A stretch of DNA of 64,000 nt, taken from Escherichia coli. Its GTDB lineage: Bacteria > Pseudomonadota > Gammaproteobacteria > Enterobacterales > Enterobacteriaceae. Positions within the stretch are counted from its first letter, which is position 1, and every line of letters begins with the position of its first letter. Shown piece after piece: positions 42,701-47,009 of the stretch. The stretch lies in assembly GCF_965641715.1 (NCBI RefSeq), contig NZ_OZ282453.1; one strand, 5' to 3'. The position numbers are program-made.

Positions 42701-45700
42701 TGCTTAACCTGTCTCACCGTTCTGGTGAAGATTCGTTCCCCGCACTCTGCATCTCTGCTTTGCATACCTGCCGATGTTATACCCATCTCGGCGCTTCTCA
42801 GGATTCAAGAGCTGGTTACAGTTACTGAGGACTGAACAAGGGCGCTCTTGTAAAAACAAGAGTTTTCTCGTGGTTTCGCCGAACTGTCACACTTACGTTC
42901 GGTTATGTGCTTAATAATGTTATGAAAAAGAAACCGGTTGCGCAGTTGGAGCGTCAGCATTCACTGCTGGAAAATCCATGTGCTTATGGGTTGTTATCGC
43001 AGTTCCAGGCTGCGATAGTCGTTAACTGTTTTACACTTAATAAAATAATTTGAGGTTCGCTATGTCTGACGACATGTCTATGGGTTTGCCTTCGTCAGCG
43101 GGCGAACACGGTGTACTACGCTCCATGCAGGAGGTTGCAATGAGCTCCCAGGAAGCCAGCAAGATGCTGCGTACTTACAATATTGCCTGGTGGGGCAATA
43201 ACTACTATGACGTTAACGAGCTGGGCCACATCAGCGTGTGCCCGGACCCGGACGTCCCGGAAGCTCGCGTCGATCTCGCGCAGTTAGTGAAAACTCGTGA
43301 AGCACAGGGCCAGCGTCTGCCTGCACTGTTCTGTTTCCCACAGATCCTGCAGCACCGTTTGCGTTCCATTAACGCCGCGTTCAAACGTGCGCGGGAATCC
43401 TACGGCTATAACGGCGATTACTTCCTTGTTTATCCGATCAAAGTTAACCAGCACCGTCGCGTGATTGAGTCCCTGATTCATTCGGGCGAACCGCTGGGTC
43501 TGGAAGCCGGTTCCAAAGCCGAGTTGATGGCAGTGCTGGCACATGCTGGCATGACCCGTAGCGTCATCGTCTGCAACGGTTATAAAGACCGCGAATATAT
43601 CCGCCTGGCTTTAATTGGCGAGAAGATGGGGCACAAGGTCTATCTGGTCATTGAGAAGATGTCAGAAATCGCCATTGTGCTGGATGAAGCAGAACGTCTG
43701 AATGTCGTTCCTCGTCTGGGCGTGCGTGCACGTCTGGCTTCGCAGGGCTCGGGTAAATGGCAGTCTTCCGGCGGGGAAAAATCGAAGTTCGGCCTGGCTG
43801 CGACTCAGGTACTGCAACTGGTTGAAACGCTGCGTGAAGCTGGGCGTCTCGACAGCCTGCAACTACTGCACTTCCACCTCGGTTCGCAGATGGCGAATAT
43901 TCGCGATATCGCCACGGGCGTTCGTGAATCCGCGCGTTTCTATGTGGAACTGCACAAGCTGGGCGTCAATATTCAGTGCTTCGACGTCGGCGGCGGTCTG
44001 GGCGTGGACTATGAAGGCACCCGTTCGCAGTCTGACTGCTCCGTAAACTATGGCCTCAATGAATACGCCAACAACATCATCTGGGCGATTGGTGATGCGT
44101 GTGAAGAAAATGGTCTGCCGCATCCGACGGTAATCACCGAATCGGGTCGTGCGGTGACTGCGCATCACACCGTGCTGGTGTCGAATATCATCGGCGTGGA
44201 ACGTAACGAATACACGGTGCCGACTGCGCCCGCAGAAGATGCGCCGCGTGCATTGCAAAGCATGTGGGAAACCTGGCAGGAGATGCACGAACCGGGAACT
44301 CGCCGTTCTTTGCGTGAATGGTTACACGACAGCCAGATGGATCTGCACGACATTCATATCGGCTACTCTTCCGGCACCTTTAGCCTGCAAGAACGCGCAT
44401 GGGCTGAGCAGCTTTATTTGAGCATGTGCCATGAAGTGCAAAAGCAGCTGGATCCGCAAAACCGTGCTCATCGTCCGATTATCGACGAGCTGCAGGAACG
44501 TATGGCGGACAAAATGTACGTCAACTTCTCGCTGTTCCAGTCGATGCCGGATGCGTGGGGGATCGACCAGTTGTTCCCGGTTCTGCCGCTGGAAGGGCTG
44601 GATCAAGTGCCGGAACGCCGCGCTGTGCTGCTGGATATTACCTGTGACTCCGACGGTGCTATCGACCACTATATTGATGGTGATGGTATTGCCACGACAA
44701 TGCCTATGCCGGAGTACGATCCAGAGAATCCGCCGATGCTCGGTTTCTTTATGGTCGGCGCATATCAGGAGATCCTCGGCAACATGCACAACCTGTTCGG
44801 TGATACCGAAGCGGTTGACGTGTTCGTCTTCCCTGACGGTAGTGTAGAAGTGGAACTGTCTGACGAAGGCGATACCGTGGCGGACATGCTGCAATATGTA
44901 CAGCTCGATCCGAAAACGCTGTTAACTCAGTTCCGTGATCAAGTGAAGAAAACCGATCTTGATGCTGAACTGCAACAACAGTTCCTTGAAGAGTTCGAGG
45001 CAGGTTTGTACGGTTATACCTATCTTGAAGATGAATAATTAAGATTATTCTGCTGGCGGGTCGATTTATTTACGTAAATCGGTCCGCTTTCTTTTTATAT
45101 ATTCTTAAAAATAATTTAGCTGCTTTTCTTATTAAATAATCTCCCTACAATCGCTGCATTAATTAAATGCAGAGGGAACGGTTATGAAAAAATGGAAAGT
45201 ACGTAGCGCGTTGGTGGCATTAATCGTGCTGCTGGCCGGTTGTTCCAGTAATGCGCAGTATAATAGCAGTGCATCGGGCAATGTCGGCACCGCCTGGGGT
45301 GGGGATGTGCACTCAACGGTTCAGGGCGTATCTGCTGAGCGAGCCTGGCGCGATCCGGCGGAGATGATCGTTATTAGTTATTCGACTAATGTTCCTTCCG
45401 GCTACGACCGCGTTTATAGCATTCGTATTAACGAACTGGAATATGCTATTCGCGATGGTAATTTTAATTCTCTACCTATTACGCGTGTTTATGATTCATC
45501 CAATAATGAACCACGCTATATTGTCCATGCCAGAGTCGGAATGAATTATCAATTATATGTCCGTAATTACAGTCGTAACACCAACTACGAGATCGTTGCT
45601 ACGGTTGATGGCCTGGATGTGCTGAACGGCAAGCAAGGTTCGCTGAATAACAACGGCTATATTGTGAATGCCGGAGATTCTTTAGCGATTAAAGGATTCC

Positions 45701-47009
45701 GCAAAGATAAACATACCGAAGCGGCTTTTCAGTTCGCCAACGTTGCTGATTCCTACGCAGCCAATTCGGCGCAAGGCGATGTGCGTAATACCGGTGTAAT
45801 AGGCTTTGCCGCCTTTGAATTACAAGGCCAGGCGCAAAACGCGCTGCCGCCGTGCTCTGGACAAGCCTTTCCGGCAGATAACAATGGCTATGCGCGCCAC
45901 CGTGTCGGAAATAGCAACCTCGCTTGATGCCTCGCCCATTTAAGGCGATAATTAGCACAAACTTGTGTTTCGCAAATCCAACCCTTCCTCGTCGGGCCTA
46001 ACGACGCGGAAGGGTTTTTTTATATCGACTTTGTAATAGGAGTCCATCCATGAGCACCTTAGGTCATCAATACGATAACTCACTGGTTTCCAACGCCTTT
46101 GGTTTTTTACGCCTGCCGATGAACTTCCAGCCGTATGACAGCGATGCCGACTGGGTGATCACCGGCGTGCCGTTCGACATGGCCACCTCTGGCCGTGCCG
46201 GTGGTCGTCACGGCCCGGCGGCGATTCGCCAGGTTTCGACTAACCTGGCCTGGGAACACAACCGCTTCCCGTGGAATTTCGACATGCGCGAGCGTCTGAA
46301 CGTGGTGGACTGCGGCGATCTGGTATATGCCTTCGGCGATGCCCGTGAGATGAGCGAAAAACTGCAGGCACACGCCGAGAAGCTGCTGGCTGCCGGTAAG
46401 CGTATGCTCTCCTTCGGTGGTGACCACTTTGTTACGTTGCCGCTGCTGCGTGCACATGCGAAGCATTTCGGCAAAATGGCGCTGGTACACTTTGATGCCC
46501 ACACCGATACCTACGCTAACGGTTGTGAATTTGACCACGGCACCATGTTCTATACCGCGCCGAAAGAAGGTCTGATCGACCCGAATCATTCCGTGCAGAT
46601 TGGTATTCGTACCGAATTCGATAAAGACAACGGCTTTACCGTGCTGGACGCCTGCCAGGTGAACGATCGCAGCGTGGATGACGTTATCGCCCAGGTGAAA
46701 CAGATTGTGGGTGATATGCCGGTTTACCTGACCTTTGATATTGACTGCCTGGATCCTGCTTTTGCACCAGGCACCGGTACCCCGGTAATTGGCGGCCTGA
46801 CCTCCGATCGCGCTATTAAACTGGTACGCGGCCTGAAAGATCTCAACATCGTTGGGATGGACGTAGTGGAAGTGGCTCCGGCATACGATCAGTCGGAAAT
46901 CACTGCTCTGGCAGCGGCAACGCTGGCGCTGGAAATGCTGTATATTCAGGCGGCGAAAAAGGGCGAGTAAGCACCAGATGCGATGCGCACGGGTAAAACG
47001 TGCCATTAA

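Follow-up and report, generated by a model that had tools for sequence, protein, structure and literature searches.

Between speA and speB, the 64,000-nucleotide stretch of Escherichia coli DNA analysed here (contig NZ_OZ282453.1 of assembly GCF_965641715.1; the whole stretch is called the window) carries a gene for a small lipoprotein, an open reading frame (ORF) at 45184-45927 on the plus strand. We consider it likely that this gene is ancestral to the locus, has been inherited vertically and forms a transcription unit of its own within the speA-speB spacer. An earlier note, made from the DNA alone, had described it as apparently foreign; such an origin is not borne out by the comparisons below, in which the gene occupies the same locus in about 10 genera, has a synonymous divergence (dS) like that of speA and shows no mobility signatures. 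The order speA, lipoprotein gene, speB was counted in 15 loci, representing about 10 enteric genera and 4 other Escherichia species.

Position and descent of the lipoprotein gene

The comparison set comprised 5426 complete E. coli genomes, with the window's own genome outside the set. The complete 1.3-kb region with the gene was found in 3542 of them, including O157:H7, O145:H28 and ST131 strains; K-12 does lack the gene, but most E. coli have it. Beyond E. coli, the speA-speB gap of E. whittamii and of two further Escherichia (E1V33 and MOD1-EC7003) holds an orthologue, as does that of Citrobacter, Klebsiella, Kluyvera, Enterobacter, Intestinirhabdus, Phytobacter, Kosakonia and Entomohabitans, with identities of 53-97% overall. 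The gene stands directly upstream of speB in E. albertii, where the contig ends, and directly after speA in Salmonella. Ratios of nonsynonymous to synonymous divergence (dN/dS) of 0.06-0.13 reveal purifying selection on the lipoprotein gene. Between the window and E. whittamii, dS is 0.31 for this gene and 0.34 for speA. Just 12 of 72,556 plasmid records match it, none of them mobilizable and nearly all very large replicons, chromids or mislabelled chromosomes, while the matches among phages are 4 weak, partial ones in rhizobial phages.

In the window the gene order is metK (minus strand), speA (plus), the lipoprotein ORF (plus), speB (plus), loiP (minus) and tktA (plus). speA, for the biosynthetic arginine decarboxylase, occupies 43062-45038 on the plus strand, as defined by the ORF call and by the speA annotation of matching E. 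coli records; speB, for agmatinase, occupies 46050-46970 on the same strand and is preceded by a Shine-Dalgarno sequence, AGGAG, at 46038-46042. The spacing from the end of speA (45038) to the start of speB (46050) is thus 1011 bp, against 137 bp in the K-12 derivative JM83. These measurements agree with the spacings given in the earlier note (about 140 bp in K-12 and about 1 kb here), and the 137-bp spacer of JM83 bears out that the gene is missing from the K-12 locus. The gap contains no mobility genes and, apart from overlapping frames, no other ORF of at least 50 codons; a target-site duplication or flanking direct repeat was looked for at the borders of the gene, and none was found.

The base composition of the gene had been a ground for regarding it as foreign. 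Its centre is indeed AT-rich and rich in Asn, Tyr and Ser: 45380-45600 has 38.9% GC, which is the 3rd percentile of 200-bp windows in a stretch that averages 52.1% GC, and in residues 66-140 Asn and Tyr make up 13% each and Ser 9%. The gene as a whole, however, shows only a mild AT shift (48.8% GC, the 15th percentile of 744-bp windows). GC content at third codon positions (GC3) is 47% in the lipoprotein gene, compared with 61% in speA and 64% in speB. Low GC3 recurs in the orthologues of nearly all genera examined (in Klebsiella, 51% versus 74% in the flanking genes), and it is more probably a trait of the gene lineage than the sign of a recent entry into E. coli.

The K-12 junction was observed in 1867 complete genomes, in 1797 of these at 99% identity or more, and it is identical in four unrelated gene-less strains. 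This short haplotype, a single and nearly invariant one carried by about a third of E. coli, lacks about 874 bp, comprising a terminator that follows speA, the lipoprotein gene and promoter/leader sequence. It retains the TTGAnn-N17-GATAAT promoter-like element, the hairpin with its T-run and the Shine-Dalgarno sequence of speB. The retained 55-bp promoter segment, however, is only 68% identical to that of the long haplotype, whereas the segment of E. albertii is 91% identical; the divergence of the K-12 segment is of the size seen in another genus. K-12 is in the derived state in lacking the gene, and the divergence of the 55-bp segment, greater than that of E. albertii, suggests that the short allele is either old or imported from another lineage. 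Synonymous differences between the window and K-12 crowd the 5' half of speB as well, 36 of them within about 760 bp that encode identical protein, and from 45974 onwards the two are identical for 120 bp. The breakpoint of the deletion is only approximate, as the retained segment is about 32% diverged. Recombination between the TTTTTATAT repeats, which follow both terminators, was considered as the route of deletion and was rejected, since these repeats do not fit the K-12 junction. Szumanski and Boyle reportedly described the K-12 speA-speB region, with a speB promoter and terminator, in 1990.

Over 20 kb (36000-56000), the closest complete genome to the window is E. coli A30 (NZ_CP028745.1), at 99.4% identity; O145:H28 strains are 99.2% identical. 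In A30 an IS3-family transposase gene, itself frameshifted, interrupts the lipoprotein gene, an independent inactivation, and frameshifted versions of the gene are known from Salmonella and Klebsiella. The lipoprotein gene is dispensable and has been lost repeatedly. In Salmonella Senftenberg a 7.7-kb island separates the lipoprotein gene from speB; it encodes a GntR regulator, a mannitol dehydrogenase family protein, a zinc-dependent alcohol dehydrogenase, an Ldh-family oxidoreductase, YhcH and an alpha/beta hydrolase. The Senftenberg record is labelled 'plasmid 2' yet has core chromosomal genes.

The 20-kb query (36000-56000) matched a median of 27 places per genome, probably because of a repeat downstream of speB. 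There, at 46975-47260, overlapping ORFs in different frames encode a near-identical 36-residue peptide (...GVNALSDLRS.PVGRIRCASIASGNAH.VTNVPFMSDA.); this shared peptide reflects a direct DNA repeat that resembles repetitive extragenic palindromic (REP) sequences and bacterial interspersed mosaic elements (BIMEs).

The lipoprotein, its family and the allele in this genome

The N-terminus encoded by the ORF, MKKWKVRSALVALIVLLAGCSS, has a positively charged n-region, a hydrophobic core and an L-A-G-C lipobox. The signal peptide (45184-45240) shows, in MKKWKVRSALVALIVLLAG, K2, K3, K5 and R7 and then a 12-residue hydrophobic stretch, and the structure model predicts a helix at residues 7-16. Residues L17-A18-G19-C20 agree with the lipobox pattern [LVI][ASTVI][GAS]C; the lipobox cysteine, Cys20 (codon at 45241-45243), is invariant across 41 homologues, and conserved motifs continue to a C-terminal YAPPP. 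The lipoprotein signal described in the earlier note is thus canonical in form. Anchoring in the outer membrane is predicted from Ser21, since the residue at +2 is Ser, with no Asp, and the E. coli Lol sorting rule would then direct the protein outward.

The gene is a known, annotated and strain-variable one: its RefSeq orthologue in non-K-12 E. coli, WP_000758914.1, is annotated as 'lipoprotein' and elsewhere as 'hypothetical protein'. By gene numbering, with tktA as ECs3810 and yqgB as ECs3815, WP_000758914.1 probably corresponds to ECs3813 of O157:H7 Sakai. Within the literature that could be searched, no paper dealing with the lipoprotein gene came up. The protein matched no Pfam model and, in a sequence search, no PDB entry; NCBIfam gave only weak matches to the lipoprotein signal regions of ActS and LptM and nothing beyond the signal region. 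An exhaustive profile search nevertheless collected 4251 clusters (at 50% identity) with E<=1e-3, of which 3281 reached E<=1e-10. The members are mostly single-domain proteins of 240-380 residues, and homologues are spread over Alpha-, Beta- and Gammaproteobacteria. Hypothetical proteins of large rhizobial and Agrobacterium phages of 171-490 kb (PV764938.1, MN988519.1 and MF403008.1) match the beta-sandwich core described below, over residues ~90-220, at 32-37% identity and E values of 1e-6 to 1e-10.

The AlphaFold model is an all-beta sandwich with a mean predicted local distance difference test (pLDDT) score of 81, most of the core exceeding 90, and with a disordered tether and tail. On this model the mature protein would begin with a flexible tether (residues 20-33), continue as one beta-sandwich domain (~34-215) and end in a proline-rich tail that is conserved (AFPAD..GYAPPPCRK); in the enteric versions of this tail Cys224 and Cys241 probably close a disulphide loop. 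The nearest folds are MATH/TRAF-like and immunoglobulin (Ig)-like beta-sandwiches (the USP7 TRAF domain 2f1x, the SPOP MATH domain and the de novo Ig 8bl3), with 2-15% sequence identity, Foldseek E values of 0.045 or higher and template modeling (TM) scores of 0.27 or lower; the likeness extends to fold class and does not amount to evidence for homology or peptide binding. The invariant residues of the family are Trp, Tyr, Arg, Asp, Glu, Asn and Gly, and a Ser/His/Cys catalytic set is absent, for which reason we infer, with low confidence, a binding or scaffold protein of the cell envelope, tethered to the outer membrane, rather than an enzyme. In its lipobox signal peptide, flexible tether, one small domain, low codon bias and presence/absence polymorphism, the protein resembles the strain-variable orphan outer-membrane lipoproteins of E. 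coli; it differs from them in belonging to a very large pan-proteobacterial family, in its conserved C-terminal YAPPP and in having no family model.

Comparison with strain XH990 reveals that the copy in this genome is altered at its 3' end. One C is missing at about 45895/45896 (plus strand) relative to XH990, changing GCGCCGCC to GCGCGCC in an otherwise matching gene of the WP_000758914.1 type at the same position (99.8% DNA identity). The normal protein has 243 residues, stops at the TAG at 45912-45914 and ends in ...GYAPPPCRK, whereas the protein here has 247 residues and ends in ...GYARHRVGNSNLA; the frameshift thus replaces the conserved tail ...YAPPPCRK by ...YARHRVGNSNLA. Across the family A237 of this tail never varies, and conservation at Y236, P239 and P240 is 90% or more. 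The earlier reading of a 247-residue product was correct for this ORF, but the normal product is shorter and 247 residues is the length of a rare frameshift allele. The deletion is present in none of the 3482 complete E. coli genomes that carry the stretch. The exact 247-residue protein is nevertheless encoded on 6 contigs of independent assemblies, and this form is therefore a real, if rare, allele and not a read error. It is shared with assembly GCA_965259455.1 and run ERR11175676. With its conserved tail destroyed, the local copy is probably impaired.

Transcription signals between speA and speB

Two hairpins with T-runs, one after speA and one before speB, bracket the lipoprotein gene. The speA-proximal one, which the earlier note did not include, was detected by a terminator scan as an intrinsic terminator at 45055-45098 on the plus strand (hairpin at 45055-45088 followed by a T-run; -17.8 kcal/mol) and is absent from the K-12 haplotype. 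Its structure is kept over 14 enteric loci with many compensatory changes, at a mean identity of 65% and with 8/34 invariant columns. Downstream of it, a putative -10 box of the lipoprotein gene, TACAAT, lies at 45146-45151 on the plus strand, and a TAnnnT is found at the same position in all aligned genera. From this conservation we infer that the gene would have its own promoter at 45146-45151.

Between the -10 box and the start codon lies an interrupted inverted repeat (45154-45172, plus strand) that abuts the Shine-Dalgarno sequence GAGGGA (45172-45177). What had been called a perfect 19-bp palindrome near the ribosome-binding site is an inverted repeat in that place, but an imperfect one: CTGCATTAATTAAATGCAG is self-complementary at 16/19 positions, with 7-bp arms, a 5-nt spacer and a hairpin energy of -7.9 kcal/mol. 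The window holds 59 inverted repeats of that size (22.6 in shuffles), so that this one is unremarkable on its own. Its interpretation as a conserved regulatory hairpin was rejected, as the sequence is conserved only within Escherichia; in other genera a stable but different small hairpin occurs there in about half of the cases, with z-scores of -3.4 to +1.6.

Upstream of speB, a promoter scan identified a sigma-70-type element, TTGATG-N17-GATAAT (45924-45952, plus strand), as a candidate speB promoter. Its hexamers are kept in all compared syntenic loci and in K-12, with minor variants in Klebsiella, Phytobacter and Kosakonia. speB is reported to have its own mapped promoter, which is sigma-S-preferred (PMC3141248). 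In most loci with the second hairpin, 26-27 nt separate that hairpin from the promoter-like element. The hairpin itself (45980-46016, plus strand) comprises a 15-bp arm pair with 93% complementarity and is followed by TTTTTTT; with this U-tract it extends to 46024, ends 25 nt before the speB ATG and has an energy of -24.4 kcal/mol. The earlier description of a strong terminator about 25 bp before speB thus holds. Term-seq of K-12 MG1655 placed an RNA 3' end at 3083827 on the minus strand, 30 nt upstream of the speB ORF (PMC7815308, supplementary file 3), so that an in vivo 3' end is on record for this hairpin in K-12, which has the identical sequence and lacks the lipoprotein gene.

The suggestion that this terminator may change speA-speB co-transcription as a consequence of the gene is not supported. 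The hairpin at 45980-46024 is identical in K-12 and near-invariant across genera (92% mean identity, 29/37 invariant columns), and it therefore did not arrive with the gene; in Salmonella it remains with speB despite the 7.7-kb island upstream. The actual difference between the haplotypes is the extra speA terminator (45055-45088) of the long haplotype, so that read-through from speA passes two terminators here and one in K-12. The earlier regulatory suggestion is in this sense half correct, though on other grounds than those it gave. Based on these signals, speA would end at its own terminator (45055-45098), and the lipoprotein gene would form a separate unit with its own -10-like box, a short leader containing a hairpin and an end at 45980-46024. 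Lying downstream of the conserved speB promoter-like element, the latter hairpin would both terminate the lipoprotein transcript and form part of the speB leader.

The near-invariance of the speB hairpin (29/37 columns), set against the freely covarying speA terminator (8/34), points to a sequence-specific role. Its invariant inner stem-loop is CGUCGGGCCUAACGACG, and the hairpin occurs once in the window; a search of 44950-46150 with Rfam gave chance-level matches only, with no family reaching threshold. The speB leader could act as an attenuator or as a ~65-nt RNA whose stem-loop is read sequence-specifically by a factor or ligand. Agmatinase has long been known to be induced by agmatine, by a mechanism that is unexplained, and the leader might underlie this induction.

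Alternative readings and significance

The evidence on descent leaves little room for a recent acquisition, in which about 875 bp would have been inserted by horizontal transfer into an ancestral, K-12-like 137-bp spacer. Such an islet would account for the AT-rich centre, for a GC3 of 47% beside flanks of 61-64%, for the lack of the gene in K-12 and in 34% of genomes, and for non-syntenic copies elsewhere, one of them ~3 kb from a transposase gene. It is nonetheless very improbable, given that about 10 genera and other Escherichia species have the gene in the identical position, that its dS matches that of speA, that the gap is free of mobility genes and flanking duplications, and that plasmid and phage matches amount to chromids or mislabelled chromosomes and four weak hits; moreover, it is the K-12 allele, with its 55-bp segment at 68% identity against 91% for E. 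albertii, that looks out of place. A different alternative makes the lipoprotein a functional part of the polyamine locus, co-regulated with SpeA and SpeB and serving, for example, the envelope handling of agmatine or putrescine. Its co-directional place between speA and speB is kept across the Enterobacteriaceae, and polyamines act on the outer membrane. We regard this role as improbable for several reasons. The speA terminator, promoter-like signals and another terminator enclose the gene; a third of E. coli lack it and yet have intact speA and speB; and Salmonella has the 7.7-kb island between it and speB. The association with spe genes is, in addition, confined to the Enterobacteriaceae, and homologues elsewhere never adjoin them: copies away from spe genes occur in Providencia, Proteus, Gilliamella, Neisseria, Pseudomonas, Burkholderia, Paracoccus and Variovorax, and no neighbour is conserved across families among Trabulsiella, Paracoccus, Citrobacter sp. 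18056 and 60 other loci. The sole recurrent non-enteric arrangement, hisD, the homologue, a 115-residue ORF and hisC in the Comamonadaceae, is uninformative on function.

A third alternative concerns this genome in particular, where the ORF could be a decaying pseudogene without function and the frameshift a first step of loss. The 1-bp deletion removes the conserved YAPPPCRK tail and with it Cys241, and inactivation has occurred independently elsewhere, through IS3 in A30, through frameshifts in Salmonella and Klebsiella and through complete loss in 34% of E. coli. On the other hand, only the last 8 residues are changed, the beta-sandwich core, signal peptide and promoter are intact, and the 247-residue allele persists in several independent assemblies. 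We take decay of the local copy to be a serious possibility, with the odds somewhat against it. More ambitious, and rather unlikely in our estimate, are two further readings, that 45924-46024 is a dedicated cis-regulatory speB leader, and that the lipoprotein founds a family with a specific envelope function.

Several observations weigh against the preferred reading of an ancestral, vertically inherited and separately transcribed gene. Its GC3 is below that of the flanking genes in nearly every genus (47% versus 61-64% here), and the data would also be compatible with a gene acquired long ago, at the base of the Enterobacteriaceae, or exchanged repeatedly within that family. The protein family can move, as copies outside the locus show: one in Citrobacter sp. 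18056 lies ~3 kb from a DDE transposase gene, and others are found in Trabulsiella and in the his operon of the Comamonadaceae. The -10 box and promoter assignments rest on conservation only, and the guess at a binding protein on a weak fold resemblance and the lack of catalytic-looking residues. The frameshift, for its part, alters only the last 8 residues, so that the protein may still fold and work.

The copies in the Comamonadaceae show the family lodged for a second time in an operon for housekeeping biosynthesis. In Variovorax, Acidovorax, Comamonas and Xenophilus (one locus and about 25 others in the Comamonadaceae) the homologue is flanked by hisD and hisC, and in Variovorax and Xenophilus it is followed by the 115-residue ORF, whose product looks secreted.

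Nothing in these results is surprising in principle, and the finding is largely ordinary. Its remaining interest lies in the unusually invariant speB leader hairpin and in the family: a group of more than 4000 clusters with neither a Pfam model nor a structural relative deserves to be characterised, having gone unstudied because K-12 lacks the gene. The lipoprotein may found a large unmodelled family whose specific envelope function has been hidden from study by the use of laboratory K-12. For the locus itself, K-12 is not the ancestral template, as two thirds of E. coli carry an extra envelope lipoprotein and an extra speA terminator, and findings made in K-12 on how speA and speB transcription is coupled may not carry over to the majority of strains.

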